Positions 6,319 to 47,845 of a DNA stretch of 64,000 nt are shown here, one piece after another (position 1 is the first letter of the stretch; each line of letters opens with the position of its first letter). The stretch spans positions 26,061-90,060 of the forward strand of contig CAIZWN010000073.1 of assembly GCA_903936705.1 (NCBI GenBank). The letters run 5' to 3'. The notes under the pieces are model-generated. The model was not told the DNA's origin. It made no database searches and was given only the letters and a program-made list of their open reading frames with translations. This DNA is from an uncultured Myxococcales bacterium (GTDB lineage Bacteria; Myxococcota_A; UBA9042; DTJE01). A program made the translations under genes and the position numbers.

Positions 6319-7644
6319 TCAGGGGATTTCGTCCTCCAGGGGATGGATCACCAGCCCCGAGATGATCTTCGGGTAGAAGAACGTCGATTTCTGCGGCATG
6401 CGCTCGCCTGCAGCTGCCACCGCCTCTATCTGTTGGGCAGTTACGGGATTCAACAGGATGGCTGCCTGATACTTTCCGTGATCCTGTTCCAGGGCCTCGG
6501 CAACGTCGTTCAACGAGTGCATGTAGTCCAGGTTTGCCTGGGAGGCCTGCGCATCCTTCGTGATGGCCAGCAATCCGGACATCACGCGCTGGTGCAACCA
6601 TGAAACGTCCAGTCTTGCGACGGAGGCGTGCAGTCCGCTGTCTTTCACGAAGGCCTCATGGGCTTCCGGGTGGACTGCCAGGACCATCCAGCCGCCCTTG
6701 CCAAGCCGGAACGCGAAAGAAGGTCCTGATTTGCCACAGCGCTCAAGCAGACTGGAGGCCTGGTGAATGTCCGTCCCAGCCTGAATCACTTCGCATTCGC
6801 GGGATAGCGCGGCTAGAAGGGCAGCCGGGTCGAATCCGGGAATGCCGTGCAGCAAGCGGTAGATAGGCTGGATTACAAGGCCGTCCTGGTGTGTGTTGGC
6901 CATGTAGACGCTGGCAAAGTTGAACGGCTCTTCGCCGGTCACAGTGCCAAGTTCGGCCCGCCTTGCATTCCGGTAGTTCTTGGTAGTCTCGTAGCGGTGG
7001 TGCCCATCGGCAATGTATTGAGTGAAGCCGGAAAGGATGGTTGACAGGCTCTCGACCGCGTCATGTCTGGTAACCAGTAACAGCCGGTGCCGAACGCCGT
7101 CGGCACAGGCGAACTCGACGCCAGGATTCATCACCCCCGGTTGGGCCAGAACGGCGTCCACCTGTCGCTGGGGATCCGAATAAAAGGTGAATACCTGTGA
7201 ACACACCACCTTGCATGCCGAAAACAGTTTCAGGCGGTCGGCCTTGGGCCCATCCAGAGTGCGTTCGTGGGCCAGCAGGCCGCCATGGTCCTGGATGCGC
7301 CAGCGACCCACGACACCGCGGCGCGTGACTGTGCGGCCGTCTGCCAGGGGAAATGACTGCTCGTAGACATAGAACGCCTGGCTGGGGTCGCGCGCGATAC
7401 TGCCGTTTGCCAGGAAGGTTGCAAGATCGATACGCGATCGGGTGTATCTGTTGTCGGTACTTGTATCCGAGTCGTGCTGGAAACCCAGGATCAGGCGAAC
7501 GACGTTGGCAGGATGGCGTTCGTACAGCTCGCGCTGCTGATCCGGTGAAATCACGTCGTAGGGAGGAGCCAAAACCTGGCCAAGATCCCCGACCACCTTC
7601 GGGTCGTATCTCAAAGCCCTGACCGGCAGAACGCAGTTGGACAT
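6319..7644 (-). CDS. DUF1015 family protein
   Basis: RALRYDPKVVGDLGQVLAPPYDVIS is the DUF1015 N-terminal signature. The start is set at MSNCVLP, where GGCGGAGG lies 4 nt upstream. Confidence 0.7.
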   Translation of the reverse strand: MSNCVLPVRALRYDPKVVGDLGQVLAPPYDVISPDQQRELYERHPANVVRLILGFQHDSDTSTDNRYTRSRIDLATFLANGSIARDPSQAFYVYEQSFPLADGRTVTRRGVVGRWRIQDHGGLLAHERTLDGPKADRLKLFSACKVVCSQVFTFYSDPQRQVDAVLAQPGVMNPGVEFACADGVRHRLLLVTRHDAVESLSTILSGFTQYIADGHHRYETTKNYRNARRAELGTVTGEEPFNFASVYMANTHQDGLVIQPIYRLLHGIPGFDPAALLAALSRECEVIQAGTDIHQASSLLERCGKSGPSFAFRLGKGGWMVLAVHPEAHEAFVKDSGLHASVARLDVSWLHQRVMSGLLAITKDAQASQANLDYMHSLNDVAEALEQDHGKYQAAILLNPVTAQQIEAVAAAGERMPQKSTFFYPKIISGLVIHPLEDEIP

Positions 7645-7745
7645 CTGGCCTCCGCCCCAAGCGACCCGGGCGAAACCTAGCACAACCACGGGTGGAATTG
7701 TTAGTGCAAGGGAATATGGTAACATGCCGCCGGGGAGGAGTTTTG

Positions 7746-9503
7746 ATGCCTTCGAGGGTCTGTCCGGATTGCGATTTCGGATCCGACGCGATCTTGTGCC
7801 CTAAGTGCGGGCACAGAACCATGCGCGAACGAAAGGCTGGGGACGTTGTAGACCCGATGATTGGCACCGATCTGGACGGTCGCTATCGGATCGATTCGAT
7901 CATCGGTCGCGGCGGCATGGGCAGTGTCTATCGAGGGCTGCAGTTGGCTACCGGCCAGACGGTCGCCATCAAGGTAATAAGGGCCGAAAGCGCCGAAAAC
8001 ATGGAGGCGGCCAAGAGGTTTCATCGCGAGGCCCGAGCGGCCAGCCTTTTGACGCACCCGCACACAATTCGCGTATTCGATTTCGGCGAATCCGAGCAGG
8101 GCGACCTGTACATGGTCCTTGAGTTTCTGGCCGGACGTACACTTGGGAAAGTCATTCGGGCCGACGGTTGCATGCCCGAACAACGGGTAGCCAAGATCGG
8201 ATGCGAGATTGCGCAGTCGCTGTCCGAGGCCCATTCGACCGGGCTGGCCCACAGGGATTTGAAACCTGAAAACATCATGCTGGTCGACGCCTTTGGGGAT
8301 CCTGACTTCGTAAAGGTTCTGGACTTCGGAATCGCCAAGTTCCTGTCGGGTTCGTCGGGTGAATCGGCCGTCACGCGGACCGGAGCTGTCGTCGGGACGC
8401 CTCATTGCATGGCACCAGAACAGGCAACAGGCTCGCGCGCTTTGACGCCCGCTGTCGATATGTATGCCTTGGGTGTCATGCTGTTCGAGTCTGTTTGCGG
8501 ATTCAAGCCGTTCGACGGTGATTCTCCACTGAATATCCTGATGGCTCACGTTCGGGACCCGGTTCCTGAACTGCCTGGGGAGTGTGCTGTCTCGATCGGC
8601 TTTCGTGGCCTGGTTCGCCGAATGCTGGACAAGGAGCCGTCGCGAAGGCCGTCGGCGCCCGAGGCCGCTCGCGAAATGGAGCGAATGCGGTTGCATGCGA
8701 TGTTCAGCGGGGCCACCAGGGAGAAGCCGCCTGTACTGACCCTGAATACGGCGTACGGTCCTGCCGTACTGCCAACTGAAGTTGAATCAAGATTGAAGAC
8801 CAGGATGCTGACGTCGAACGAGGTCAAGGTCCAGACGCCTGCTCCTCCCCTTGTCGTTTCCGTCGAGACCCCTGTTGTTGCCGACGTCGATACCGGGTCT
8901 GATGTCGTCGAACCGACAGGGCCTCAAACCCGGATCGCCCAGCCTGCTTTGGCTGTTGACCCAGTTGCGCTTGCGGCCGAGGGCGAGCCCTGGGAGGTTT
9001 CTTCCGCGACTGCGCGCTCGGCGCCTTGGTGGCAGTGGGTCCTGGTTACCCTCCTCATCGCAGTATGCGGCGGTTTGGCGTGGTGGGGATTTTCGGTCTA
9101 CGTCGGGGGTTCCTTTGATTTCGTAGCAAGTGAGGCTGCGCCGCCGTCGTCACCGTCGCCACCACCGTCGCCACCGCCGTCGTCACCGCCGTCGCCACCG
9201 CCGTCGTCACCGCCGTCGCCACCAGCACAGGCTCCGGCCCAGATTGTGCCTGCCAATCCTGCCCCCGAACCAATCGTTGTTCCTTCGGAATTGCGCCCGA
9301 AGGCCTCCGAGCCAAAACCTGTGGATGTTCCATCGAAGGTTGGTATTTCGAAGCCCGTAAGCGAGCCGGCTGCTGGCATAGGTCCGGCCAAGGACAAGGG
9401 CGTCAGGCCCCGACCGATGATTGTCGCTCCGAAGGAAGTACATGCGCCGCCGGTCCGGAAAAAGCCGGTCGAAAAGCAGGATAGCTACAAAATCCTGGAC
9501 TAG
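7746..9503 (+). CDS. Ser/Thr protein kinase (Hanks type) with an N-terminal Cys4 zinc ribbon, one TM helix and a Pro/Ser-rich repeat tail
   Basis: CPDCDFGSDAILCPKCGH is a zinc-ribbon pattern. Kinase motifs are GRGGMGSVYRG, AIK, HRDLKPENIML, DFG and APE. RBS GGGGAGGAG lies 6 nt before the ATG at 7746. Confidence 0.85.
   Translation: MPSRVCPDCDFGSDAILCPKCGHRTMRERKAGDVVDPMIGTDLDGRYRIDSIIGRGGMGSVYRGLQLATGQTVAIKVIRAESAENMEAAKRFHREARAASLLTHPHTIRVFDFGESEQGDLYMVLEFLAGRTLGKVIRADGCMPEQRVAKIGCEIAQSLSEAHSTGLAHRDLKPENIMLVDAFGDPDFVKVLDFGIAKFLSGSSGESAVTRTGAVVGTPHCMAPEQATGSRALTPAVDMYALGVMLFESVCGFKPFDGDSPLNILMAHVRDPVPELPGECAVSIGFRGLVRRMLDKEPSRRPSAPEAAREMERMRLHAMFSGATREKPPVLTLNTAYGPAVLPTEVESRLKTRMLTSNEVKVQTPAPPLVVSVETPVVADVDTGSDVVEPTGPQTRIAQPALAVDPVALAAEGEPWEVSSATARSAPWWQWVLVTLLIAVCGGLAWWGFSVYVGGSFDFVASEAAPPSSPSPPPSPPPSSPPSPPPSSPPSPPAQAPAQIVPANPAPEPIVVPSELRPKASEPKPVDVPSKVGISKPVSEPAAGIGPAKDKGVRPRPMIVAPKEVHAPPVRKKPVEKQDSYKILD
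9139..9222 (+). repeat. In-frame 12/24-nt tandem repeat (CCGTCGCCACCG / CCGTCGTCACCG) encoding SPPPSPPPSSPPSPPPSSPPSPP inside the kinase gene
   Basis: The nucleotide periodicity is seen directly. It lies on the extracytoplasmic side, after the TM helix. Confidence 0.6.
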
Positions 9504-9561
9504 CCATTCCGGTAGACGCGCCCGTGCGCTATGATTTCCGCGAATAGATGACGAGGTCCAA

Positions 9562-10845
9562 ATGCGTAGTGACGTGAAGCTGTTGCGTGGAATTTTGGTC
9601 GTGGTTGTTGCCGCGACTGCATTTGCGCATCGGGCCGGGGCCGAAGAGGGTGGGGCCGCCGCAGCTGCTGCCCTGGCCGCCAGCGCTCGTGTCTACTACG
9701 ACGAGGGAAAACTGGACCAGGCACTGGAGTTGTTTGAGAAGGCGTACAGCCTGGATCCGGACAAGTCGTTGCAGGTCAACATCGCCAGAATCTACGACAA
9801 GAAGGGCGACCTGGCACGGGCGCAGACGGAGTACGAAAAGCTCTTGAAGGCGCCCCTGGATGCCGCGGTCAAAGCAAAGGTCGAGGCATGGCTTGCGGCA
9901 GTGCTGGAGAAGTTCACCGGATTCCTGGTCCTGAGGGTCGAGCCTGCTGGAGCAAGTGTCCTGGTGGATGGGCAGGCTGTAGTTCTTTCGAAGGAGGGAG
10001 GCCTGGAACTGAAAACTGGACGTCATCAAGTGGTGGTTCGCCAGGATGGCTTCCTGGACGAGACGCGGGATGTCGATGTGGTGTCCGGGGCAAAGGTCGG
10101 TGTCGATGTGCGACTGCGCAGCAGACTGGGTAAGGTCAAACTGGACTGCGCCTGCAACGGGGCGCAGATTACCGTGGATGGCGTTTCGGTTGGCGTCGTG
10201 CCGCTGAAGCACCCGCTGCAACTGGAGCCGGGTGCCCATCTGGTGGAACTGGTGGCGTCAGGTTTCAACAAGGCATCTCGCAACCTGAAGGTCGTTTCAG
10301 GCGAGGAGATCCTGCTGTCCATGAAGATGGAAAGCGTCGTGGCGAAAGCCCCTACCCCGCCAGTTCCGGCTGCTGTTCCCGCCGTGCCTGTGGCAAAGGC
10401 TTCGCCCCCCAAGGAGACGCGGAAGCTGGGGGATGCCGTCATTGCCAAGCCGGCGACTGTCAAGAAGGCGTCCGCGTGGCCGTGGGTGACATTCGGGACC
10501 GGCGTTGTGGCGTTGGCGACGGGTGGCGTTCTGACATGGGCCTCCTCGTCCCAGCGCGCAAAGGTTACCGGTGCCGCCACGTCCTCTGATGGCCAGACCT
10601 TGCTGATGACAATGGAACAGGCCAAAAAATACCAGGACAATGCAAATCGCTACCAGACGGCCGCTGTCGCCATGTATGCCGTGGGCGGCGCTGCTGCGCT
10701 GGGCGGGCTGATCTGGGGCATTGTTGACCTGGTGCGAAGGCCTGCCGCCAGGGCCGAGTACTCGGGCCAGAAGAAGACGGTGATCGTGGGTGCTTCGCCA
10801 TGGCCATCTGGCGCCGTTGTTACCGTCAATGTCACTGGCTGGTAA
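9562..10845 (+). CDS. Secreted TPR + PEGA domain protein with a C-terminal membrane anchor
   Basis: A signal peptide is present. A TPR-like segment (YYDEGKLDQALELFEKAYSLDPD) is followed by PEGA-like beta segments and two C-terminal hydrophobic helices. A paralog lies at 13261..14151. Confidence 0.6.
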   Translation: MRSDVKLLRGILVVVVAATAFAHRAGAEEGGAAAAAALAASARVYYDEGKLDQALELFEKAYSLDPDKSLQVNIARIYDKKGDLARAQTEYEKLLKAPLDAAVKAKVEAWLAAVLEKFTGFLVLRVEPAGASVLVDGQAVVLSKEGGLELKTGRHQVVVRQDGFLDETRDVDVVSGAKVGVDVRLRSRLGKVKLDCACNGAQITVDGVSVGVVPLKHPLQLEPGAHLVELVASGFNKASRNLKVVSGEEILLSMKMESVVAKAPTPPVPAAVPAVPVAKASPPKETRKLGDAVIAKPATVKKASAWPWVTFGTGVVALATGGVLTWASSSQRAKVTGAATSSDGQTLLMTMEQAKKYQDNANRYQTAAVAMYAVGGAAALGGLIWGIVDLVRRPAARAEYSGQKKTVIVGASPWPSGAVVTVNVTGW

Positions 10846-10939
10846 GGCTGGCTGAATTGCTTGGCTGGCAGGATGGTTCGACACTCCAGTTCAACCGGCT
10901 GGAACTGGTGTAGGTTTTTCCGTCACACCTCTTCTTTAG

Positions 10940-10962
10940 TGTCGCAGTTGGCCTGACAGACC
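10940..10962 (+). promoter_or_regulatory. Copy of the GACAGAC inverted-repeat motif (TGTCGCAGTTGGCCTGACAGACC) about 74 nt upstream of the Cys-rich gene start
   Basis: It shares a TGTC-N(8-11)-GACAGAC architecture with three sites in the 47.8-60 kb cluster. Confidence 0.35.
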
Positions 10963-11035
10963 AATGCCGCAAGTCATTGAACTTATGTGGCGGCCGTGTG
11001 TATCATAGCCGCGCTAAGTGGCTGGAGTTCAATCG

Positions 11036-13096
11036 ATGATAAGGGTTGCTGGCTGCCTTGTTGCCTTGGGCCTGGCTTGTTCGGCGTTCGGTTGCAAGTC
11101 GTCAAGCGAATCCGGCGGTGATTTCGGGTCCAGTGCCATCGTGCATGCCTTTGGCAGGCTCGAGCCGACTATCAAGACCGATGCACAATCGCCTTCGTCC
11201 AGGAGTCCAGCAGAGATCTCGGGATTTTCTGGCGAGGGGCTTCCCAAGGGGCATGGGCAGACAGGCGGGGTCAATCTGTTGACGGGGTGCGTTGACGGCA
11301 AGGATCTTTTCTTGCAAACGGACATTGATGGCGATCGTGGTAACGAGCAGGTGCATGCCTTGTACTGTGCCGGCGATGAAGTAATCCACATCGCCTGGTC
11401 GGGGGATGCTGCTTCCGGGGACGGCGGTACCTGCTATCTGGCGTGGCATGGTGTCCCGGACGGGCTGTACAGGATTCTTGCAGGTCCTTGTGGCGGTGGC
11501 GGTTTGCTGGTTCTGACCCTTTGCGAGGATCGTGGCGGCAGTTCGGGCGTAGAGTGCCGGGTCTGCCAGTCGGGTGACGAGTGCCAGACGAGCTTCCCGG
11601 ATGACGTTTATGTGGCAGACATTTCCCAGGAAGACAGCAATCGGGGCGATGGCAACTTGGGCGACGGCAGCCTGGGCGACGGTTTTGCGGGCGATACCTC
11701 CGGCTTGCCGGATGCGGCGGGGGCTTGCCAGGGCGACCAGGATTGTCACGATGGCCTTGTTTGCATTGGCAAGGTTTGCACGATCGATCCCACGGTTGTT
11801 TCCGCTGGGTCCTGCCTTACCTGTACTGGAGACGAGGGCTGCGATCCAGGTTTGAAATGCCTGCCGGTAGGCGCAAGCAAGCATTGCCTTCTGGATTGCA
11901 CGACCGATGGGGATTGCCCTCGGTCGTACATTTGCTATGCCGCTTCGTCCTCCAACAAATCCTGTCTGCCGGTCAGCTACGCCTGCCCGCCTTGCGCGGC
12001 CGATGCACCCTGCGAGGCAGGCAAGGTTTGCGACATGCTGGTTTCCGGGGGAACCTGCAAGGTGGGAAATCCGGAATGCGGTTCGTGCACGTACGATTTC
12101 GATTGTGCGGCTGGCATGCGTTGCTACAAGAAGACGGGATCTGCCAAGGGCGTCTGCGTTGCCGGATGTTCGGACGCGAAGCCCTGTTCCGGCGTCGCGA
12201 AGTTCTCGTGCGAGGCAAGCGAAAAGGGCGTCAAGATGTGCAAGCCGCTGGCCGATGATTCCTGCCTGGTATGCCCGCCCGAGAAGCCATTTTTGTCGAA
12301 CGACGGCCTGTCCTGCTGGCAGTGCCTGAACAACAGCCAGTGCACCGTGGTGGGTGAGACCTGCAACGCCATGCACGTTTGTGCGGTTGGCGGCTGTTCG
12401 AAATTCACCTGCGATGACGGGAACTGCCACGACTGTTGTTCGGATTCGGATTGCCCGAACAGTACCGGCCCCTGCACCAACTACCAGTGCGTGAACCAGG
12501 TCGATCCTTGCAACGGCACATGCCTGTCTCCGTACCCGATTTGCGCCGAGATCAACGCTACATTGCAGTGCGTGCAGTGCAAGGAAACTGCCGACTGCGC
12601 CGGCCAGGGTTCAGGCTCGTGCACGTGCACCGGCGACCCGACCTATTCATGCATCGAACCCGACGGCAACGTCTGCCAGTCGGCTGTATGTGGTGCGGTT
12701 TGTCAGACCGAGGTCGATTGCCCTCCTGATGCGAACGGTGCTTCGCTGGCCTGCACGGGCGGTGCTGGCGGCATCTGCTATAACCCGACGGGCGCTTGCG
12801 ACGGGGTTTCGTCCTGCTGTGTTGCGGGTGCGTCGTGCTACGACGTGATGTCGGCTATCATGGGCGGTCTTGGTGGCATTCCTGGCGGCACGACGCCGGC
12901 GATCAATGCCTACTGTTCCTGCACGGACGCGATACCATGCCTGGGTGGCAAGCCATGCACCGCCACAGCCGGCATGTGCACATTCCCGCTTGTAGGTGAA
13001 ACGATGTGTCCTGGAGGCATTCCACCCGCTACCATGCCCGAGAAGCTGTGTATGGACATTGCCGAAATGTTGACTGGCATCCTAGGTGGCATTTGA
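11036..13096 (+). CDS. Secreted cysteine-rich repeat protein (686 aa, about 90 Cys)
   Basis: The signal peptide is MIRVAGCLVALGLACSAFGC. It is followed by many C-x2-D-x-D-C-x2-G-x-x-C-like modules. GGAG lies 8 nt before the ATG at 11036, whereas the ORF-track start at 11018 is GTG. Confidence 0.6.
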   Translation: MIRVAGCLVALGLACSAFGCKSSSESGGDFGSSAIVHAFGRLEPTIKTDAQSPSSRSPAEISGFSGEGLPKGHGQTGGVNLLTGCVDGKDLFLQTDIDGDRGNEQVHALYCAGDEVIHIAWSGDAASGDGGTCYLAWHGVPDGLYRILAGPCGGGGLLVLTLCEDRGGSSGVECRVCQSGDECQTSFPDDVYVADISQEDSNRGDGNLGDGSLGDGFAGDTSGLPDAAGACQGDQDCHDGLVCIGKVCTIDPTVVSAGSCLTCTGDEGCDPGLKCLPVGASKHCLLDCTTDGDCPRSYICYAASSSNKSCLPVSYACPPCAADAPCEAGKVCDMLVSGGTCKVGNPECGSCTYDFDCAAGMRCYKKTGSAKGVCVAGCSDAKPCSGVAKFSCEASEKGVKMCKPLADDSCLVCPPEKPFLSNDGLSCWQCLNNSQCTVVGETCNAMHVCAVGGCSKFTCDDGNCHDCCSDSDCPNSTGPCTNYQCVNQVDPCNGTCLSPYPICAEINATLQCVQCKETADCAGQGSGSCTCTGDPTYSCIEPDGNVCQSAVCGAVCQTEVDCPPDANGASLACTGGAGGICYNPTGACDGVSSCCVAGASCYDVMSAIMGGLGGIPGGTTPAINAYCSCTDAIPCLGGKPCTATAGMCTFPLVGETMCPGGIPPATMPEKLCMDIAEMLTGILGGI

Positions 13097-13260
13097 TGTT
13101 GCCGCGGGCAGAATGGCCATCCTTCCCGTCTGAATAAGCCACGGCCCGTCCTCTTCTTGTCGCGCCCGGCTCTTCATGTCTCTGCCAACCTGTCGTGCAA
13201 TGCGAAGAAAGCCATGGTAGAAGAATGCACACCTTACCCGGGGACGCGCCTGTGGTTTTC

Positions 13261-14151
13261 ATGTCGTCAAGGATGGCGGTCCTGGCTGCGGTTTTGTTCA
13301 GCCTTGCGCTGCCCGCCCGCGCCGCCGATGACCCTGCCGTCGCCGCTCGCGCCCTGGCTGCCAGCGCCAGGGTGTACTACATGGAAGGGAAGCTGGACAG
13401 GGCCCTCGAGTTGTTCCAGAAGGCGTACAGCCTGTACCCCGATCAGGCCTTCCGTGTGAACATCGCGCGCATCCTGGATAAGAAGGGCGAGACTGCTGGT
13501 GCCCAGGCCGAATACGAGGCAATACTGAACGACAAGCCCGACGAGGACACCCGGGCCAAGGCCAGCGGTTGGCTGGCGCAATTGCTGCAGCGCCTGAAGG
13601 GGCGATTGCTTTTCGATGTACTGCCGGAAGACGCCGAGATCGAGATCGATGGGGTCAAGGTCCTGGTTCCTGACGGCAAGACCATTGAAATCAAGCAGGG
13701 GCGCCATGACGTGATGGTCCGGGCCGAGGGCCATGTCGGGGAAGCCCTTGAAATTGATGTGCAGCCGGGTGGTTCCGTGACGCTGAAGGTGCGTTTGGCG
13801 GTCAAGTCCGGGTCGTCTGTCGCCTCGGGCAAGCAGCCTGCGGCGTCGGGCTCCAAGGGCGGCAAGCCTGACGCCCCGGCCAAGTCGCCTTTGTCCGCGG
13901 GTTCGTCGGCGGCGGCGGGACAGGGTTCCAGTCAGCAGGGTCAGGCGCACAATTCCTTTGCGCCTGCCGGATCATCCCGGGGCACGGAGCCTGCCCCCAG
14001 TCCGGTTGTCGGCAAAACGCCCTGGTACAAGAAATGGTGGATATGGACCATCGTAGGCGGCGTTGTGGTCGCGGGGGTTGGGACGGCCGTTGGTCTGACC
14101 GTCGGCAAGCAGGCGCCCGAGAGGCATCTGACCGGTCTGATTACATGGTAG
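13261..14151 (+). CDS. Secreted TPR + PEGA domain protein, paralog of 9562..10845
   Basis: ARVYYMEGKLDRALELFQKAYSLYPDQAFRVNIARILDKKGE aligns almost residue for residue with the upstream paralog. A signal peptide and a C-terminal TM helix are present. Confidence 0.6.
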   Translation: MSSRMAVLAAVLFSLALPARAADDPAVAARALAASARVYYMEGKLDRALELFQKAYSLYPDQAFRVNIARILDKKGETAGAQAEYEAILNDKPDEDTRAKASGWLAQLLQRLKGRLLFDVLPEDAEIEIDGVKVLVPDGKTIEIKQGRHDVMVRAEGHVGEALEIDVQPGGSVTLKVRLAVKSGSSVASGKQPAASGSKGGKPDAPAKSPLSAGSSAAAGQGSSQQGQAHNSFAPAGSSRGTEPAPSPVVGKTPWYKKWWIWTIVGGVVVAGVGTAVGLTVGKQAPERHLTGLITW

Positions 14152-14156
14152 GACAA

Positions 14157-15905
14157 ATGCGTATGCGGGCAGTTCAATCGGTGTCTGGCAAGGCGGTCGC
14201 CAGGTTCATGGCCGCAGTGGTCGCTGTGGTCGGTACTGCAGTCTTGGCGGGTTGTGGCAGCGATACGCAGCCGCAGACCCAGTCGGTCCTGCAGGTCCAT
14301 GTAGGGCTGGTCCAGGCTGTTAAGGTGCTGACCGGCGAATCGCTTGATCCGGCGGTTGGTGCGCAAACCATCAAGAACACGGTTTCGGGTCCAGGGATGG
14401 AGGATGTTTCAACGTCCTACAACTATAAGGATGGCCCTGGTGGCAGCGGGGAGTTGCCGGTTTTTCCGGAAGGCTACGAGCGGCAGGTTACCGTTGAGAT
14501 ATGCCGGGGAATCTGCGAGCCGGCTGCTATTGACGACATTATTTCGCGTGGTCGCTCGGTGCCCATTAGGCTCCAGTGGGGCGACACAAAGTCCCAGACC
14601 GTTTTCGTGGCACCCAGAAACTCCTTCGTGCTTCCCGCAAGGCTTGGCGATAACGGCGCCGTTGTTAAATCGAATGCTTCGTTCAAGGAGCGCGTCGGCG
14701 CAACTGTGACAAGGCTGGACGATGGCACGATGCTGATTATCGGTGGAGCGACTATCAAGGGTGGCGCTGCATCTTGGTACCGTCCCGAGGACATCTCATC
14801 GGTGACGGCGAACGCCGAGATCTACGACCCGCGAACCGGCGTGTTTTCCGCAACGGCCGGCCCGCTGAAGCGTGGCCGGGCATACCACGCCGCGGTATTG
14901 CTGGGCGGCCCGAACAAGGCTGACGGACGCGTGGTCGTGATGGGTGGCTACGAGTCGAAGGGCGGCGGATTTGTTCCAACCGCGTCGGTCGAGATTTTCG
15001 ATCCTGATACCGGGAAGTTCGTCGAGGAGCCTGTGGACCGCTGGCTGTCGGGCGCAGGTCGAGCCCTGCTGACTGCCGGCCTGGCCTACCCGGACGAAGA
15101 CGTGATCTTCCTGGCCGGTGGCATCTCCGATCCCTCGGACCGAGGTGCGTGGTTGTTGTACAAGGCCGGCACCGGAACCGTCGGGGCAGGCGGGTTGGCG
15201 CCGGCGGAGGTCGGTCCCGAGAACGGGCGTGGCAAGCCGCGCTGGAACCATACGATGACCTTCCTGCCTAACTACGGCAAGAGCGCTGGAGGCACTCCGA
15301 TCCCGGCATTCGTATTGATGGGAGGCGAGAACGATTCGGAGGTCCTTTCTGAAGTCGAGGCCTACCAGCTTGATCCCTGGAATGGCGGGTCTTCCTCGGT
15401 GCGTCGGGACGTTGAGGCTGTTACCACTGCGCTGCCTGTTACGGCGCGCACTCTGCATGCGGCAGTATACGTGCCGGGGCAGGACATCGTATGGGTGATT
15501 GGCGGTTTCGAGGACAGGCAACTTTCCAGGCCCATCAATCGCGTCGAGGTATTCCGCGCAGGGTCGCTGTCCTTCACGGCCGGCGAGTATCTCGAAATGG
15601 CGGAAGGGCGCGGTGGCATGTCAGCGACGCTTTCAGAGACATTGAACAATTCGATATTGATCGCCGGAGGTAGAGGTACTGGTGGTCCGCTGGTCCGTAC
15701 CGAGATGATCCTCGAGAAGAAGGTTTGTTCGGGAGCCGATGTGTGCATCCGCCAGCCGTTCCTGGCCTCGGACCGGACCCCGGAAATGGAATCCCCAAGG
15801 GTTGGACATACAGCCTCCCTGGATCCAACAGGGCGCCTGCTGATCCTTGGGGGAGTGTCTGATTTCAACACGATTCCGGCCCCGATCTTCTACAATCCTG
15901 ACTAG
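14157..15905 (+). CDS. Lipoprotein with Kelch-type beta-propeller repeats
   Basis: The lipobox is LAGC. Repeated GG...YHAAVLL / VMGG / FLAGG segments are typical of Kelch/galactose-oxidase-like blades. AGGA precedes the start. Confidence 0.55.
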   Translation: MRMRAVQSVSGKAVARFMAAVVAVVGTAVLAGCGSDTQPQTQSVLQVHVGLVQAVKVLTGESLDPAVGAQTIKNTVSGPGMEDVSTSYNYKDGPGGSGELPVFPEGYERQVTVEICRGICEPAAIDDIISRGRSVPIRLQWGDTKSQTVFVAPRNSFVLPARLGDNGAVVKSNASFKERVGATVTRLDDGTMLIIGGATIKGGAASWYRPEDISSVTANAEIYDPRTGVFSATAGPLKRGRAYHAAVLLGGPNKADGRVVVMGGYESKGGGFVPTASVEIFDPDTGKFVEEPVDRWLSGAGRALLTAGLAYPDEDVIFLAGGISDPSDRGAWLLYKAGTGTVGAGGLAPAEVGPENGRGKPRWNHTMTFLPNYGKSAGGTPIPAFVLMGGENDSEVLSEVEAYQLDPWNGGSSSVRRDVEAVTTALPVTARTLHAAVYVPGQDIVWVIGGFEDRQLSRPINRVEVFRAGSLSFTAGEYLEMAEGRGGMSATLSETLNNSILIAGGRGTGGPLVRTEMILEKKVCSGADVCIRQPFLASDRTPEMESPRVGHTASLDPTGRLLILGGVSDFNTIPAPIFYNPD

Positions 15906-15940: not shown

Positions 15941-17371
15941 CTATATTCCCTTGCGACCACGCAGCGCCGTCAGCACCCGTGCGTGAATCCCCTGGAAGTC
16001 GCGCCCGCTCATGCCCAGCACTACGTCACCCGGAAGGGCGACCTGGGCCGCCTCGTTTGCAAGTGCATCGATGTCGGGAATCATGCGTGCCGGCGTTCCG
16101 CGGGCACTGATGTCGGCGCACAAGCGGTCCATGTCGATGCGCTCGTCGGGAGCCAGGTTGTCCGGCTTCTCGAACGGTTTGTAGAACAGCATGACATCGG
16201 CCTGGGCGAAAGCATCTGCGTACTCGGCCTGGAACACGCGGCGGCGCGAGGTGTTTGATTCGGGCTCGAACAACGCCACCAGACGCGCCCCAGGGTATGC
16301 CTGCCTGACCGCCAAAATGGTCTCACGGACGGCAGTAGGGTGGTGGGCAAAGTCGTCGATGACGGTGACGCCGCCCTCGACCCCTTTGACCTCCTGGCGC
16401 TTTCGGATGCCCTGGAATTGGGCCAACGCCGCCGGCAGTTCTGGTGTTACAGCCCCGACCTCGTGCAGCAGGGCAAGCGCCGCGACCGTATTGCGCAAGT
16501 TGTGGTCGCCTATCAGCGGCGTCTCGAAGATGCCTGCCGTGCGTCCGTTGTTCGTCAACCGGAATCGGCAGCGGCCCGCACCACGGGTCACTTCGGTAGC
16601 CTGCCAGGTGCCGCGTTCCACCCCGAACGTTGTGCCAATCGCACCGGCTTGCGCAAGAACCGCCGGCACGTTGGGGTCCCCTTCTGGCACCAGCAAGGGT
16701 GCGTTGCCGGGGACCAGCGCAGCGAATTTCGCGAATGCGGCTATCACAGCGTCAAGGTCCTTGAAGATGTCGGCGTGGTCGAATTCGACGTTGTTGATTA
16801 TCGCCGCGCTGGGGGCGTAGTGCAGGAACTTGGGGCCTTTGTCGAAAAACGCCGTGTCGTATTCGTCGCCCTCGATCACGAAGTGTGGCCCGCTGCCCAG
16901 GCGGTAGTTTACCCCGAAGTCCAGTGGGACGCCGCCAACCAGGAAGGACGGGTCCAGCCCTTGCGCGTGCAGAAGGTGGCATATCAGCGATGTCGTCGTC
17001 GTCTTGCCATGGGTGCCGGCGACGACCAGCGAACGGCGATTGGAAAGGAAGTACTTGTTCATCGCCTGCGGAAACGACAGGTGGGGGCGGCCGGATTCAA
17101 GGACCGCGATCGCCTCGGGGTTCACCCGGCGGATTACGTTTCCAACGATTACGAGGTCCGGGTCCCACTCCAGATTCTGCGGCCCGTAGGGATGCATCAC
17201 AGGGATGCCCAGTTGGTCCAGCAGCACGCTGACGGGAGGGTATGGCGCCGCCTGGTCGGAACCGCGAACCTGGCAGCCCGCCTCGCGAAACAGCCCTGCG
17301 ACAGCGGACATTGCCGTCCCGCCGACGCCCATGACATGCACCTTGTCGATCCCGTCGATCCCCCGCACCAT
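15941..17371 (-). CDS. mpl: UDP-N-acetylmuramate:L-alanyl-gamma-D-glutamyl-meso-diaminopimelate ligase (murein peptide ligase)
   Basis: The N-terminus HVMGVGGTAMSAVAGLF...GSD...YPP...LL..GI matches Mpl. The Mur-ligase P-loop GTHGKTTTTS and the overall Mur ligase architecture are present. Confidence 0.8.
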   Translation of the reverse strand: MVRGIDGIDKVHVMGVGGTAMSAVAGLFREAGCQVRGSDQAAPYPPVSVLLDQLGIPVMHPYGPQNLEWDPDLVIVGNVIRRVNPEAIAVLESGRPHLSFPQAMNKYFLSNRRSLVVAGTHGKTTTTSLICHLLHAQGLDPSFLVGGVPLDFGVNYRLGSGPHFVIEGDEYDTAFFDKGPKFLHYAPSAAIINNVEFDHADIFKDLDAVIAAFAKFAALVPGNAPLLVPEGDPNVPAVLAQAGAIGTTFGVERGTWQATEVTRGAGRCRFRLTNNGRTAGIFETPLIGDHNLRNTVAALALLHEVGAVTPELPAALAQFQGIRKRQEVKGVEGGVTVIDDFAHHPTAVRETILAVRQAYPGARLVALFEPESNTSRRRVFQAEYADAFAQADVMLFYKPFEKPDNLAPDERIDMDRLCADISARGTPARMIPDIDALANEAAQVALPGDVVLGMSGRDFQGIHARVLTALRGRKGI

Positions 17372-26136: not shown

Positions 26137-26655
26137 ATGACGGTCGAGGTAGCGATTCGAACTGCTATGGAGTACGAGGCCAAGGTGCGGGACACATATG
26201 CAGCCGAGGTGGTTCTGGCCACGGATCCGGTGGCGGTGCGCGTTCTGACTCTGCTGGCGAGGGAGGAACAGGGACACCTGGATTACCTGGTGGACCGCAT
26301 GCGGGAATGGACTGAATCGGGCACGGTCAAGCTCGAGAAGCTTGGAACGCAGGTCCCATCGGCGCAGCTCCTGGCCAAGGGCATAAAAGGCCTGGAAAGG
26401 CGCATGGCAATGACGGACGAGCAGCGTGCTTCGGCGCTTGCGACATTGAGGAAGGCCGAGGCAGCCGAGCGGGCGACGGCACAGTGGTACCACAAGGTGG
26501 TTGACGAGTTGCCCGGTGCTACCGAGAAGGCCCTTTTCAGCCGGTTCCTGGAGATCGAGGAAGGCCACGCGGCGATAGTGCAGGCCGAGATCGACTCGGT
26601 TACTGGGCTTGGTTTCTGGTTCGACGTTCCCGAGTTCAGGCTGGAATCCGAGTGA
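26137..26655 (+). CDS. Ferritin-like diiron protein (rubrerythrin family)
   Basis: Two E...EExxH half-sites are present (LAREEQGH and FLEIEEGH). The start overlaps the reductase stop region. Confidence 0.55.
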
Positions 26656-26710
26656 CGCTGCTGCCCCGTTCTTCTTTCTGACTGCCTTGCCACTTCAGGT
26701 TCCAGTCCCA

Positions 26711-28990
26711 ATGTTCAGGCCTTCGGGAGGTGCGACCTTGTCTTCTTCCGGTTGCGATCTGGCGATTGTGGGAATGTCGTGCGCCAATTGTGCGAAGGCC
26801 GTCGAACGTGCGGTCTTGCGCGTTGAAGGCGTCTCGTCGGCGCAGGTGAATCTGGCCTCGGAAACATGTTCGGTGCACTTTGATTCCTCGATTGCCAGCG
26901 TCGAGTCGATGGTTCGAGCGGTCGAGGCCGCAGGTTTCAGGGCCGTGCCAGCGCGAGACGATGGCCTTGCCGAGCAGGAGGCTCGAGAGGCCGACGAAAA
27001 GGCGCGGCGGCAGCGGTTCGTGATCGGCGTCATATGCACCGTGCCGCTGGTCGTGCTGGGGATGGCCTCGGATGCCGGGTTGTTCGACGCATGGTCGGCG
27101 CGCGCGCTGGTTCCCTGGGTGCTGTTGGGCCTTGCGACGCCGGTCCAGTTTTATGCGGGATGGGGATTCCTGGCCGGGGCGGTTCGGTCGCTTCGTTCGG
27201 GTACCGCCAACATGGATGTGCTGGTATCCCTTGGATCGTTTGTGGCCTATGGCTGGTCAGCCGCGATTCTGATTGCCGGCGTGTCCGGGCATGTCATGTT
27301 CGAGACGTCCGCCCTGATCATCACGCTGGTCCAGTTGGGGAAGATGCTGGAGGGACGGGCGCGGGGGCGGGCTTCAAATGCCTTGAGGGCACTGTTGAAT
27401 CTGGTGCCCGACATCGCACACTTGAGATCTACGGCTGGTGAAAAGGACGTCTTGGCCGCGGCCCTTCGGCCGGGCGACGTTGTTGTGGTACGGCCTGGCG
27501 AGCGCGTGCCCGCCGACGGCGAACTGTTGGCCGGGCAGTCGATGGTCGACGAAAGCCTGCTGACAGGTGAATCAATTCCCGTCGTCAAGTCGCCTGGTGA
27601 TCGGCTGTTCGGGGCTACGGTGAACGGCGATGGCCTGCTGACAATGCGCATTACCGAGGCCGGGGATTCGACTGCGCTTGCCCGCATCGTGCGGCTGGTG
27701 AAGGAGGCCCAGGCTGGCCGGGCGCCTGTGCAGCGGCTGGCGGATCGCGTTTCGGGGGTGTTCGTGCCGGTGGTGGTCGGGGTGGCGGTCCTGACATTCG
27801 TGTTGTGGTGGCAGATCGGCGGCGATCCTATAGCCGCCATGGTGAGGATGGTGGCGGTGCTGGTTGTTGCCTGCCCGTGCGCGCTGGGTCTGGCGACTCC
27901 TACCGCTATCCTGGTGGGCACGGGGCGCGGCGCCAGGATGGGCCTGCTGTTCCGCGGACCCGAAATCCTCGAGGCCACGTCGCGGCTGCGTGCGGTCCTG
28001 TTGGACAAGACCGGAACCTTGACCGCAGGACGTCCGGTCCTGACCGGGGTGGTGCCGATTGGCCAGATGGATGCGGACGAGGTGCTGGGGCTGGCTGCCT
28101 GTGCCGAATCGGTCGCCGGGCATCCGCTGGGGCGTGCGGTGGTCGATCATGCCACCCAGCGAGGGTTGCTGGTGATCCAGCCAGACCAGGCCAAGGTGAC
28201 GCCGGGACTGGGTGTAGAGGCCGGTGTGGGGGCGCGTACGGTGCGCGTAGGGCGGCCAGGATGGGCTTTGTCTGACGGCGTAATCGGGGCGTCCGAGGCG
28301 CTGGGGTTGGTAAATCGCCTGACGCAAGAAGGTGCGACGTCGGCGCTGGTGGTCGTTGACGGCCAGGCGGCAGCGGTGCTGACTTTTGCCGACGTCGAGA
28401 AACCAGGTGCTGCGGCCGCCGTGAAGGATCTGAAATCGCTTGGTCTGGAGGTCGCCATGCTGACGGGCGACTCGGAACCTGTGGCCAGGGCTGTGGCCGC
28501 GCGCCTGGGGATCGGGGTGGTGACAGCCGGAATTCTGCCTGATGGGAAGGCTGATGCGGTTCGCGCCGCGAGGTCGGAATTCGGCCCGGTCGCCATGGTC
28601 GGCGACGGTATCAACGACGCGCCGGCTCTGGCCGCGGCCGACGTTGGATTCGCCATCGGGACCGGTGCGGACGTGGCCATGGAGGCTGCTGACGTGACAC
28701 TGGTCGGCGGTGATCCGGCAGGAGTGGCGCGTGCCATCAGGCTTGCGCGTGCCACCCTTCAAACCGTTCGCCAGAATCTTTTCTGGGCGTTTGCCTACAA
28801 CGTTGCGCTGATTCCGATCGCCGCCGGAGTTCTGGCGCCGTTTCAGACCGTTCCCCACGTTCTTCGCGAACTGAATCCGGCCCTGGCTGCCGCGGCGATG
28901 GCATTGTCCAGCGTGACCGTGGTGTTGAACAGCCTGAGGTTGGCCGGACGAAGGATTACGGGCTTACCCGATAACGTCACCGGCGCCTGA
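26711..28990 (+). CDS. copA: Copper-translocating P1B-type ATPase
   Basis: The N-terminal HMA domain carries GMSCANC. The membrane domain carries the CPC motif, DKTGTLT and GDGINDAP. Confidence 0.85.
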
Positions 28991-29069: not shown

Positions 29070-29345
29070 ATGTACCTGGGCAGGGTGGTCGGGACGGTGG
29101 TTGCAACGCGGAAGTCGCCCGGGCTGGATGGCATCCGTCTGCTTGTTGTCCAGCCTTTGAACCCCGACCGGACACCCAGGGGCAACGTTCAGGTGGCCGT
29201 TGATGCCGTTTCGGCCGGTCCGGACGAGGTGGTCTTTCTGGTTTCCAGCCGCGAGGCATCGCTGGCGCTGGAGGATTCGTTCGTGCCTGTCGATGCGGCA
29301 ATCGTTGGCATAGTTGATTCCGTGGATGTGGAGGTCATGCCGTGA
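29070..29345 (+). CDS. Bacterial microcompartment vertex protein (BMC-P; EutN/CcmL/PduN family)
   Basis: [29 protein letters not shown]...[17 protein letters not shown]...[11 protein letters not shown] matches the EutN_CcmL fold pattern. GGAGG lies 8 nt before the ATG. Confidence 0.85.
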
Positions 29346-29659
29346 CGTTGTGTCGCGTCCTTGGGCCGGTCGTATCCACCATCAAGCACCCGACCTACAA
29401 GGGCCTGAAGCTGTTCGTGGTCCAGCCGGTCGATCCCGACGGCAGTGCGTCCGACCCTTCGTTCCTGGCCGTGGACGTGGTCCAGGCAGGGCAGGGTGAC
29501 CTTGTGCTGGTCAACAGCGAGGGCAACAGTACCCGCCAGATCCTGCAACAAAAGCAGTTGCCTATCAGGTCCCTGATCGTCGGGATAGTGGATGCGGTGG
29601 ACGCCAGGATTCCGGCAGCCCCGCCCGAAGGCACGGTTGCCGCGCAAGCCGACGCGTGA
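29342..29659 (+). CDS. Second BMC vertex protein (BMC-P) paralog
   Basis: [29 protein letters not shown]...[15 protein letters not shown]...[10 protein letters not shown] matches the same fold. The GTG start overlaps the upstream stop (GTGA). Confidence 0.85.
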
Positions 29660-30108: not shown

Positions 30109-31491
30109 TCAGTCGCTGCCTGGCCGGGCCAGGTCCAACTGGCGCAGAAGGTATTCCAGGCTCTTGCGATGAATTCCGGCGATGCGGGCCGCCTTCGAGA
30201 CGTTCCCTTCAGTACGCTTCAACAGGCGGCTGAAATAGCGACGCTCGAATTCGTCTATCAGCCGGTCCTTCACATCCTTGAACGGGTTCTCGAAATCCAC
30301 CCGCAGGATCTCGTCCGGGTCGCCTGGGTTGTGGTGCAGCGATGCCTGCGTGGGCGGCGGCAAATCCAGCGGCAGTGGCGCCCCCGACAGCGCACCCGAG
30401 AGGATCACCGAACGCTCCAGGAAGTTGCGCAGTTCGCGCACGTTGCCTGGCCAGGCGTATTCCTTCAATTTTTCCATGGTGTCGTACGACAGGCGAGGTG
30501 CCGGCATGCCGCTGCGGCCAGCGATTTCGGCCAGGAAGTGGTCGGCCATCAAGGGTATGTCCTCGGGCCGGCGGCGCACCGGCGGCAGTGCAATGCGGAT
30601 GACACCCAGGCGCCAGAACAGGTCCTCGCGGAAATTCCCGGCGCGGACCTCGTCGTCCAGACGGCGGTTGGTCGCAGCAATGATGCGCACGTCCAGTGAA
30701 ACGTGACGATTGCCGCCGACCGGCTTGACCTCTCGCTTTTCCAGGACCCGCAGCAGCTTGGGTTGCAGTTCCAGCGGCAGTTCCCCGATCTCGTCCACGA
30801 ACAGGGTGCCGCCGTTCGCCTCGACCATCGCCCCCTGGCGGTCGCGCACGGCCCCGGTGAAGGCGCCGCGCACGTGGCCGAACAGTTCGCTTTCCATCAG
30901 GTCCCTGGGAATCGCCGTGCAGTCGAAAACGACGAATGGCTTGGCGCGGCGTGGTCCAGCGGCATGCAGCGATTCGGCAGCCACTTCCTTGCCAGTTCCG
31001 CTCTCGCCCTCGATCAGCACCGTGGCGTCCGTCGGGGCGACGCGCTTCAGGATTGCGAACACCTCGCGCATCTCGACCGATCTGCCCAGCAGCATCCCGA
31101 ACCGGGTCTCGCGAGCTATACTGATGTCCACGGTCTCGGAGCCCAGCCGGAACAGGATTATTGTCTCGCCCAGCACCAACCGTTCCTCGGCCGGGAGGTA
31201 GGCCGACAGCACCTTCAGGTCGCCGATGCGTACGCCGTTCTTGCTGCCGGCGTCGGAAATCCTGTATCCCTGGCCGTCGTGCTCGATACGGGCGTGGTTC
31301 CGGGATACGGTGGGGTCCGACAGCATGAACTGGCAGTCAGGCGCAGTTCCTATGTCGACCAGGCGTTTTTCGAAGGACTTTTCCATTCCCTTGTCGGGTC
31401 CTTCGATTACCTTCATGGTGTATTTTCGCAGGGTCAGGTAATCCACCGGGACTTCGATATTCACGGTGCGGGTCTGTTCCAATTGGCTCAT
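30109..31491 (-). CDS. Sigma-54-dependent transcriptional activator with an N-terminal FHA domain and a C-terminal Fis-type HTH
   Basis: The FHA core is IGTAPDCQFMLSDPTVSRNHARI. The AAA+ elements are GESGTGKE, GAFTGA and ESELFGH. The HTH is VSKAARIAGIHRKSL. Confidence 0.85.
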   Translation of the reverse strand: MSQLEQTRTVNIEVPVDYLTLRKYTMKVIEGPDKGMEKSFEKRLVDIGTAPDCQFMLSDPTVSRNHARIEHDGQGYRISDAGSKNGVRIGDLKVLSAYLPAEERLVLGETIILFRLGSETVDISIARETRFGMLLGRSVEMREVFAILKRVAPTDATVLIEGESGTGKEVAAESLHAAGPRRAKPFVVFDCTAIPRDLMESELFGHVRGAFTGAVRDRQGAMVEANGGTLFVDEIGELPLELQPKLLRVLEKREVKPVGGNRHVSLDVRIIAATNRRLDDEVRAGNFREDLFWRLGVIRIALPPVRRRPEDIPLMADHFLAEIAGRSGMPAPRLSYDTMEKLKEYAWPGNVRELRNFLERSVILSGALSGAPLPLDLPPPTQASLHHNPGDPDEILRVDFENPFKDVKDRLIDEFERRYFSRLLKRTEGNVSKAARIAGIHRKSLEYLLRQLDLARPGSD

Positions 31492-33488: not shown

Positions 33489-33716
33489 TCTTCATCCACG
33501 ACCGGGCGCCAAGTGTACCATGTACCGATCGTCATTCCAGGGCTGTCTGATCCGAATGGTGTCCTCGGTCGGTACTCACTGCACAAAGTGGCGGTGACTC
33601 GATTGGAATCCGGACCAATGCCCAGGTAGGAAGCAAGTGGGTTCAAGCTGCGTTCAAAAGGAATTCCATGTGAAGTTCGTGCCAGCCGCCGTGTCTTTCG
33701 AAGGTGGGTCATGAGG

Positions 33717-38861: not shown

Positions 38862-38865
38862 GAAC

Positions 38866-39855: not shown

Positions 39856-39907
39856 GTCTCGCGCGCGGTCGTAGAGCGGAATAGAATCGTGTCTTGGGAG
39901 GTGTCCG

Positions 39908-40261
39908 ATGACGGAACTGGATCATGTCCTGGCCAGGTTGAGAACCTTCGTGGCGGAACGCGATTGGGACCAGTTTCATGACCCTAAGAATCTCACGATG
40001 GCGGTCGCGTCCGAAGCTGGCGAATTGAGCGCCTTGCTCCGGTGGGTGCGAGGCGAGGATTCTGACGCGTTCGTGCGATTGCCTGAAAACCGCCGAGCGG
40101 TCGAGGACGAGGTGGCCGACGTGGGGATCTGTTTGCTGCTGTTGTGCGAACGCGCCAGTATTTCCCTGCCGGACGCGATGATGCGCAAGATCGAGGCGAA
40201 CGAGCGAAAATACCCGGTCGAACAGGCGAAGGGGCGAGCTGAGAAACCGGTTCAGAGGTGA
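39908..40261 (+). CDS. MazG-like nucleotide pyrophosphohydrolase (single-domain, 117 aa)
   Basis: The motifs RDWDQFH...EAGEL and EDEVADV..CLLLL match the MazG/NTP-PPase all-alpha fold EE/E..D metal motifs. GGGAGG lies 7 nt before the ATG. Confidence 0.7.
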   Translation: MTELDHVLARLRTFVAERDWDQFHDPKNLTMAVASEAGELSALLRWVRGEDSDAFVRLPENRRAVEDEVADVGICLLLLCERASISLPDAMMRKIEANERKYPVEQAKGRAEKPVQR

Positions 40262-47830: not shown

Positions 47831-47845
47831 TGCCCCCGGTTCTGC

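Follow-up and report, generated by a model that had tools for sequence, protein, structure and literature searches.

A probable mosaic of a kinase/TPR-PEGA gene pair, a Cys-rich lipoprotein gene and a chimeric PEGA-anchor/Kelch pair in a variable slot of an uncultured Myxococcales bacterium

The window analyzed here is a stretch of 64,000 nucleotides (nt) from an uncultured Myxococcales bacterium (GenBank assembly GCA_903936705.1, contig CAIZWN010000073.1, positions 26,061 to 90,060), and the subject is a cluster of five genes in it, which encode a transmembrane (TM) Ser/Thr kinase, two proteins with TPR and PEGA domains (TPR-PEGA1 and TPR-PEGA2), a Cys-rich probable lipoprotein and a Kelch lipoprotein. 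This region is probably a lineage-specific mosaic in a variable slot, assembled from three older parts. The first part would be the kinase together with TPR-PEGA1, a conserved module in which TPR-PEGA1 is predicted to be anchored in the inner membrane through a hairpin of two helices. The second would be a copy of a Cys-rich gene of the type found beside ribBA, equipped with an orphan N-terminal domain and a promoter-like site of its own. The third would be a copied PEGA-anchor/Kelch pair, in which most of the PEGA protein would have been swapped for a TPR-PEGA head, giving rise to TPR-PEGA2. What is new is modest: two conserved gene pairs without an earlier description, a Cys-rich family without annotation and a clear natural domain swap.

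A Variable Slot Between DUF1015 and murC

The preliminary description of this DNA, made from the letters alone, had proposed five co-directional genes, and all five are confirmed on the plus strand, where they occupy the stretch between a DUF1015 gene and a murC-like gene (Table 1). The locus corresponds to scaffold_14 of the ENA assembly ERZ18650788 (GC 0.61–0.62) and is also present in five further assemblies. An assembly artefact was considered and ruled out by the identical junctions in six independent assemblies (L003–L008).

Slot synteny was followed with the DUF1015 protein as the anchor and one genome per GTDB species, and three related metagenome-assembled genomes (MAGs) were found. 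In L011, the slot holds nothing and murC directly abuts DUF1015. In L009, it holds one unrelated lipoprotein of 698 aa. In L010, it contains an ortholog of the kinase, an IS4-type DDE transposase gene, an unrelated lipoprotein gene that runs on the opposite strand, a TPR-PEGA ortholog of full length and a Cys-rich VWA-like lipoprotein, which is again unrelated. The transposase gene (L010 positions 6326–8065, minus strand) sits between the kinase and TPR-PEGA orthologs and splits the pair. Thus, the slot is variable between relatives, and only orthologs of the kinase and TPR-PEGA1 recur in it, in L010 alone of the three. Because the slot of the relatives is empty, otherwise filled or furnished with the kinase and TPR-PEGA1 only, the five-gene unit is not conserved. 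The co-conservation on which the preliminary description had staked its proposal fails for the five genes together and holds for two separate gene pairs. No flanking direct or inverted repeats, as borders of a mobile element, were detected around the window cluster, and no RNA families were found in the cluster region.

The Kinase and TPR-PEGA Gene Pair

The kinase and the TPR-PEGA gene form a conserved two-gene module. Wherever the context is readable, the gene immediately upstream of a TPR-PEGA relative, on the same strand, encodes a Ser/Thr kinase, the L010 pair being interrupted. The gap between the two genes is 58 nt in the window, 43 nt in L025, 10 nt in L029, where the kinase tail includes a PEGA-like segment, and 119 nt in L030. 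Three other loci serve as supporting cases: L019 with two kinases upstream of its TPR-PEGA relative, L028 with a truncated upstream open reading frame (ORF) resembling the tail of the L029 kinase, and L010, where the pair is separated by the transposase gene and a lipoprotein gene. L019 was the sole useful locus from a metagenome scan with the TPR-PEGA alignment, which returned mostly generic TPR matches. The GC content of the loci ranges from 0.50 to 0.71 and their surroundings are unrelated. The genes 3' of the pair vary as well, with FGE-sulfatase-domain proteins in L025 and L030 and the VWA-like lipoprotein in L010. The FGE-sulfatase-domain genes, at positions 7290–12148 of L025 and 7670–10345 of L030, stand after the pair in two unrelated loci.

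The window kinase is a complete Hanks-type enzyme, as the Pkinase model (PF00069) scores 173.9 bits against a cut-off of 31.7 and the motifs GRGGMGSVY, VAIK, HRDLKPEN, DFG and APE are all present. Its N-terminus carries a zinc-ribbon-like CxxC...CxxC motif. A single TM helix (aa 431–454) is followed by a Pro/Ser-rich tail, predicted to be periplasmic and ending in SYKILD-COOH, whose repeat is encoded by a 12-nt unit in 5.9 copies (9153–9223); the earlier picture of a transmembrane kinase with an extracellular Pro/Ser-rich repeat is thereby borne out. Orthologous kinases are 76% identical in L010 (in the kinase domain, with the same architecture), 71% identical in L030 and about 50% identical over about 500 aa in L025, the last of which has the same zinc ribbon, TM helix and Pro-rich tail. 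Four orthologous kinases end in SYKILD (window), GYEIVD (L010), RYDLFD and TYDLID, and they share the C-terminus Y-x-[IL]-x-D-COOH on tails that are otherwise unalignable. The PknB/Stk1 PASTA model NF033483 reaches 265 bits against a cut-off of 450 and covers aa 40–358, which is the kinase part only, and a domain search gave no match to the PASTA domain in the window kinase. Many PADLOC models of the PD-T4-6 type match the kinase too, the best with E 4e-84 over aa 39–541.

A second Ser/Thr kinase of the window (31488–33491, minus strand), which bears a PEGA domain in its C-terminal part, adjoins a sigma-54 activator with an FHA domain (30109–31908) and represents another association of a kinase with PEGA.

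In TPR-PEGA1, a signal peptide and TPR precede two PEGA domains; a Pro-rich linker then leads to two TM helices rich in Gly and Ala, and the short tail has Trp as its last residue (...VTVNVTGW). The PEGA model (PF08308) scores 53.5 bits against a gathering threshold of 20.8, and TPR_2 scores 36.2 against 27. The protein is 45% identical to its L010 ortholog over the full length and aligns end to end with 14 relatives, and an exhaustive HMMER search revealed dozens of full-length relatives of about 390–440 aa at 25–46% identity. In this family, the loop between the TM helices, predicted to be cytoplasmic, carries the motif [MIV]-[TS]-[RM]-x-[EQ]-A, with Ser or Thr in 11 of 15 members. The kinase-adjacent TPR-PEGA family is defined in this analysis by a signal peptide, TPR, two PEGA domains, a two-helix C-terminus and a kinase directly upstream. 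TPR-PEGA1 has all of these features, and TPR-PEGA2 has the head only.

In the TPR-PEGA relatives P0056, P0121 and P0069, a longer domain that ends in an aromatic residue (...GVGHAF, ...VAYAF, ...LYSY) takes the place of the two-helix C-terminus, and these endings resemble the C-terminal signature of outer-membrane beta-barrels.

The Kelch Lipoprotein and the Chimeric TPR-PEGA2

The Kelch gene belongs to a second conserved gene pair. As defined here, the pair starts with a PEGA protein about 540 aa long, the C-terminus of which comprises YKKWW, a TM helix and a terminal W, and a Kelch lipoprotein about 570 aa long follows within 0–47 nt. In four of four lineages examined (L013, L015, L017 and L026), the Kelch homolog is immediately preceded by a PEGA protein of 535–554 aa (hereafter PEGA535), with a junction of 0–47 nt, and three of the four pairs adjoin a divergent infC-rpmI-rplT cluster. 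At these loci the partner is the PEGA protein and not a kinase or a Cys-rich gene.

The identification of the Kelch protein as a beta-propeller lipoprotein was well founded. Kelch_4 scores 69.7 bits against a cut-off of 21.6. The AlphaFold (AF2) model (pLDDT 85, pTM 0.86) consists of an N-terminal beta-sandwich and a six-bladed propeller, whose best PDB matches are the Kelch domains of Keap1 (Foldseek E about 1e-12, target TM-score about 0.69). The lipobox is a canonical LAGC, the Cys31 of which is invariant in 16 sequences, and lipidation is predicted. Full-length homologs number 15, at 40–68% identity. The nearest copy, P0025 (68%), resides on contigs with the GC content of the window, one of them from the same sample. 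At the DNA level, the Kelch gene is 74% identical to the L013 copy, with a ratio of nonsynonymous to synonymous substitution (dN/dS) of 0.21.

In the window, the Kelch member fits the definition of the pair, and its upstream partner, TPR-PEGA2, keeps only the anchor (49–55% over 31–53 aa) and the junction, the body being replaced. TPR-PEGA2 starts with a signal peptide, followed by TPR and a single PEGA-like domain, and a low-complexity linker leads from these to its one TM helix. TPR_19 scores 33.6 against 25; the PEGA match of 15.8 bits falls below 20.8, yet the domain aligns with PEGA domain 1 of TPR-PEGA1. The head (aa 1 to about 192) is 44% identical to TPR-PEGA1 and 50% identical to the L010 ortholog. 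The anchor (aa about 245–296, YKKWW and the TM helix; YKKWWIWTIVGG...ITW) is instead 49–55% identical to the C-termini of the PEGA proteins of L013, L015 and L017. In DNA, window positions 14026–14076 match L013 positions 9864–9913 at 82%, and the junction before the Kelch gene, made of a stop codon, a Shine-Dalgarno sequence and ATGCGG, is common to the window and L013. The likeness of the head to the PEGA535 body is remote only (hhalign probability 97.6% at 23% identity). Because the head matches the lineage of the kinase partner while the anchor and the junction match the PEGA535/Kelch pairs, TPR-PEGA2 is read as a fusion. To judge from these alignments, it is a natural chimera of a kinase-partner TPR-PEGA head and the anchor of the Kelch partner, with the coupling to Kelch kept. 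The chimera makes up its own 50% cluster (P0080), without relatives, and no remnants of the replaced gene halves were found in the window by tblastn of TPR-PEGA1, PEGA535 and P0002, the closest homolog of the Cys-rich protein.

The paralogy of the two TPR-PEGA genes, as first proposed, greatly exceeds what chance or the TPR consensus would give: BLASTP aligns them at 44% identity over 177 aa (E 1e-41), through the TPR and the first PEGA domain, and at the DNA level positions 13336–13490 match 9655–9809 at 74%. The claim that they are near-identical over the first 60 mature residues was too strong, since 44 of the 60 (73%) are the same. The N-terminal TPR stretch is the best-conserved part across the whole TPR-PEGA family, and the high identity of this stretch therefore reflects constraint and not recent conversion. 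The two heads have reached saturation in synonymous divergence (dS about 2), and the dN/dS of the TPR-PEGA2 head, about 0.25, is to be read with this in mind. In a tree of the head, TPR-PEGA1, TPR-PEGA2 and the L010 ortholog form one clade with 64% bootstrap support; its internal splits have 11–44%, and the tree does not settle the order of duplication and speciation.

The Cys-rich Gene and Its Family

Judged from sequence comparison, the window Cys-rich gene copies the 3' two-thirds of a gene specific to Myxococcota, from which it has diverged and which appears to have its ancestral place beside ribBA. A set of 5.8 billion clustered proteins yielded about 20 homologs, all of which align only to the C-terminal 62% or so of the window protein. 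The sole named source of the family is a Myxococcota, and the contigs of two relatives are labelled uncultured Myxococcales. P0002 has 75% identity and comes from the same sample, where its gene lies on scaffold_3 between a thiamine pyrophosphate (TPP) enzyme gene and ribBA. A homolog with 52% identity in another MAG shares this ribBA/SurA-like context, and the homologs elsewhere lie beside ribBA with no TPR-PEGA, Kelch or kinase neighbor. In nucleotides, the window gene matches that of P0002 at 82% over 11819–13097 only, so that the likeness begins inside the gene and stops at the stop codon (dN/dS 0.24, dS 0.6). For the first 233 codons, the signal peptide and the upstream region, no relative was found by protein search, Pfam or tblastx against the paralog locus.

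The window protein holds 79 Cys, and not the roughly 90 first counted, and 67 of the 79 are within the C-terminal 453 aa. Members of the family are lipoproteins of about 575 aa with about 60 invariant Cys, and their conserved domain corresponds to window residues of about 234–686. The lipobox of the homologs is [AS]-[AG]-C; the window copy has a non-canonical GLAC or AFGC, and its lipoprotein status is a prediction. No significant match to Pfam, NCBIfam, PDB sequences or PDB folds was obtained. Searched for the Myxococcus Cys-rich repeat, MYXO-CTERM and TraA-like families, neither the window protein nor P0002 had an NCBIfam family at E <= 0.1. Dickkopf_N (PF04706) reached 16.5 bits with E 0.011, below the cut-off of 25 bits, and Draxin reached E 0.084.

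The extreme C-terminus of the family is conserved and Gly/Leu-rich, LLGGLLGGI-COOH (window 13070–13096; family alignment A1), and could be a sorting or anchoring signal. In the orphan N-terminus of the window protein, a 15-nt tandem repeat in 3.3 copies (11633–11682) encodes GDGNLGDGSLGDG.

Origin of the Second Copies

The contigs with the ribBA locus and the infC locus, which carry the second copies of the Cys-rich and Kelch genes, come from the same sample and have a GC content of 0.61–0.62, while the other relatives (DUF1015, Kelch-pair and L010 loci) have 0.69–0.71. The tetranucleotide profiles of the former correlate with the first 22 kb of the window at 0.984–0.985, when the own halves of the window correlate at 0.969 and the other relatives correlate with the window at 0.81–0.90. 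In the family trees, the window Cys-rich and Kelch copies are each sister to the second copy, with equal branch lengths. The second copies would thus fit paralogs within one genome. Both window copies are lineage-specific and under purifying selection, as indicated by the dN/dS values given above.

Gaps and Transcription Signals

The gaps in the window cluster are 58, 190, 128–164 and 5 or 11 nt, the last depending on the start chosen for the Kelch gene. The short gaps of the preliminary description are therefore right for two of the four, the first and the last, and the other two are longer. The second gap contains a terminator-like hairpin and a sigma-70-like promoter candidate (Table 1). 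Because the hairpin and the promoter-like site precede the Cys-rich gene, a single "kinase operon" appears unlikely.

Table 1. Genes and candidate transcription signals of the cluster, with the genes that border the slot
Feature	Position	Strand	Remarks
Ser/Thr kinase gene	7746–9503	+	Pkinase E 5.5e-51
TPR-PEGA1 gene	9562–10845	+	TPR plus two PEGA stretches
Cys-rich probable lipoprotein gene	11036–13096	+	686 aa
TPR-PEGA2 gene	13261–14151	+	TPR plus PEGA-like domain
Kelch lipoprotein gene	14163–15905	+	Start possibly 14157
Terminator-like hairpin, then T-run	10880–10918	+	Directly after TPR-PEGA1; consensus scan match 10894–10909 plus GTAGGTTTTT
Sigma-70-like promoter candidate	10977–11006	+	TTGAAC-18-TATCAT; 30 nt upstream of the Cys-rich gene; 9/12 consensus positions
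DUF1015 gene	6319–7644	-	Left border of the slot; Pfam DUF1015 E 2e-74; gene call in L003
murC-like Mur ligase gene	15941–17371	-	Right border of the slot; Mur_ligase, Mur_ligase_M and Mur_ligase_C domains

The Cys-rich gene had also been credited with an upstream motif in common with the response-regulator cluster, and this likeness is indistinguishable from chance. Compared with the region upstream of the only response-regulator gene of the window (47057–47830), the local-alignment score is 16, below the mean of 18.2 for shuffled sequences. No significant common upstream motif emerged from exact k-mers (best 13-mer E 0.14), from blastn-short or from Smith-Waterman alignment against seven upstream regions with shuffles. 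The best candidate is the 14-nt GCCGTGnGTAnCAT at 10993–11006 and 52897–52910, with p of about 0.02, uncorrected over 7 comparisons. The first copy sits 30 nt before the Cys-rich gene and overlaps the -10-like TATCAT, and the second sits 14 nt before the ORF 52924–53718 in the response-regulator/toxin region. It is absent upstream of the paralog in L001. This may be the motif that the preliminary description had meant.

How the Region May Have Been Assembled and What It May Do

In the mosaic reading, the kinase and TPR-PEGA1 could act as a periplasm-facing receptor and co-receptor, that is, as a split receptor. The TPR may dock the C-terminal peptide of the kinase or a secreted ligand, and the conserved Ser/Thr in the loop of TPR-PEGA1 (Thr350) may be a phospho-acceptor. 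TPR-PEGA2, with the same head, without the loop and with the anchor of the Kelch partner, could bring the Kelch propeller, a fold of the protein-binding type, into the same assembly for sensing or scaffolding in the periplasm. The Cys-rich lipoprotein may be a client or a ligand, possibly linked to the assembly by TPR-PEGA2. The original proposal of an envelope-signalling or cell-surface assembly unit survives to the extent that all five are envelope proteins (a TM kinase, proteins with a signal peptide or lipobox and TM anchors), and it fails to the extent that they are not one conserved unit.

Several points weigh against the mosaic and the mechanism attached to it. The tail of the L029 kinase ends in DDYPEP, and the C-terminal motif is limited to the closer orthologs. 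The docking and phospho-site ideas are drawn from conservation and from analogy with the TPR clamp. For each adjacency, kinase with TPR-PEGA and PEGA with Kelch, only a handful of loci were examined. The second copies may belong to a closely related strain in the same sample and not to the genome of the window, and "duplication" would then become "translocation." The RNA fold of 10846–10925 (-28.3 kcal/mol, z = -1.6) is not outstanding, promoter-like sites are not enriched over shuffles, and read-through transcription of all five genes may still occur.

The main rival is that the genes are accidental neighbors, although it is on balance the unlikely one. The slot would simply collect duplicated or imported secreted-protein genes, the modules would be independent, and TPR-PEGA2 would be a tolerated recombinant unlinked to the kinase. 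Such a slot would agree with contents that differ in every relative, with the insertion-sequence (IS) transposase in L010 and with the downstream cargo that changes at every kinase/TPR-PEGA locus. However, the chimeric head is under purifying selection (on the ratio given above, with dS saturated), the coupling of stop codon, Shine-Dalgarno sequence and ATG to the Kelch gene is retained, and secreted-protein genes recur right behind kinase/TPR-PEGA pairs, a position which suggests that their placement is non-random.

A bolder claim, which we regard as doubtful, is that the kinase and TPR-PEGA constitute an undescribed split receptor that is widespread in Myxococcota-like bacteria. In this scheme, a separate TPR-PEGA sensor would dock the Y-x-[IL]-x-D terminus, the loop Ser/Thr would be phosphorylated, the position downstream would be a slot for lineage-specific secreted ligands or clients, and TPR-PEGA2 would rewire the PEGA-anchor/Kelch pair onto the receptor.

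It is improbable that the five genes form one dedicated, co-evolved operon for envelope signalling or cell-surface assembly that is driven by the kinase. All five are co-directional between convergent and divergent housekeeping genes, they encode envelope proteins under purifying selection, and the chimera physically unites elements of two modules, as such an operon would have it. But the arrangement was seen at no other locus found, the Cys-rich and Kelch homologs reside elsewhere without the kinase, the gaps of 128–190 nt are two in number and one contains the hairpin and promoter-like site, and TPR-PEGA1 and TPR-PEGA2 have no close relatives outside the contigs of this species in the 5.8-billion-protein set. 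Finally, a PD-T4-6-type anti-phage kinase in a defence island is very hard to credit: the PADLOC matches, the variable slot and the mobile-element genes nearby in relatives would suit it, but such a match is expected from any Hanks-type kinase, PADLOC models gave no match to any of the remaining four proteins, the kinase crosses the membrane, has its tail in the periplasm and is accompanied by a conserved partner that is periplasmic too, and its neighbors are secreted proteins of structural type and not nucleases or effectors.

Other Features of the Window

The last part of the window, 47000–64000, has a GC content of 0.68 against 0.62 in the rest, and in its tetranucleotide profile it resembles the high-GC relatives (r 0.95–0.96) more than it does the window's first 22 kb (r 0.91). 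Encoded there are the response regulator, which is of the NarL type, a protein of 1658 aa that carries a MopE metal-binding motif, and a SpvB/TcdB/RHS (Tc-toxin-like) protein of 2080 aa (53709–59951), together with a further ORF of more than 1342 aa. The stretch may be an acquired toxin island. A low-GC patch (0.584) at 37296–40261 with a HipA-like kinase, an HNH endonuclease and a MazG-like protein, and a DUF6036 nucleotidyltransferase with a helix-turn-helix (HTH) protein at 43867–45025, look like toxin-antitoxin or mobile-element remnants. Furthermore, a lone homolog of EutN/CcmL, a microcompartment vertex protein, is found at 29318–29659 downstream of a copper P-type ATPase gene (26579–28990), and no further shell genes were seen nearby.

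Significance and Comparison With Known Systems

Myxococcota have very many Ser/Thr kinases, the inputs of which are almost all unknown, and the kinase/TPR-PEGA pair, recurrent and equipped with a conserved tail motif and a candidate phospho-site, offers a concrete input module that can be tested. TPR-PEGA2 is a clean natural case of module rewiring, brought about by recombination of paralogs that are only distantly related. Both the Cys-rich family and the PEGA-anchor/Kelch pair lack annotation and could now receive names. A literature search on PEGA with kinases and on Kelch lipoproteins in myxobacteria found nothing relevant in the library searched. Current understanding is not overturned, as domains of these kinds are ordinary and one species alone has the five-gene arrangement.

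The nearest kinase systems are the myxobacterial eukaryote-like (Hanks-type) receptor Ser/Thr kinases with extracytoplasmic domains and the PknB-type receptor kinases. Like them, the window kinase has the full set of catalytic motifs and one TM helix, beyond which its C-terminal region is extracytoplasmic, and the L029 kinase and the second window kinase (31488–33491) bear PEGA in that region. It differs from them in lacking PASTA or another folded sensor domain; its tail is a Pro-rich linker with a short conserved C-terminal motif, and the sensor-like TPR and PEGA domains are here on a separate, adjacent protein. In the TPR "carboxylate clamp," Hop or CHIP binds the EEVD-COOH of Hsp70/Hsp90. 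By analogy only, and not by sequence, the window pair is comparable, in that the TPR protein has a partner with a tail that varies except for its conserved acidic end, Y-x-[IL]-x-D-COOH; while the clamp of Hop and CHIP is cytosolic, the TPR here is predicted to be periplasmic.

The secreted proteins have more distant counterparts. The window Cys-rich protein is like the TraA stalk and the Myxococcus Cys-rich repeat (TIGR02232) in being extracytoplasmic, in having many small modules of disulfide type and in belonging to the same phylum, and it is weakly matched by the eukaryotic Cys-rich modules of the Dickkopf/Draxin type. Unlike these, it stays below every NCBIfam and Pfam threshold and lacks a MYXO-CTERM tag, and its family has only about 20 members with their own pattern of about 60 invariant Cys. 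For the six-bladed propeller of the Kelch lipoprotein, the Keap1-type propellers are the best structural match. In contrast to Keap1, the Kelch lipoprotein is bacterial, has an extra N-terminal beta-sandwich, shows 16–18% identity, is without BTB/BACK and has a PEGA membrane protein as its partner.

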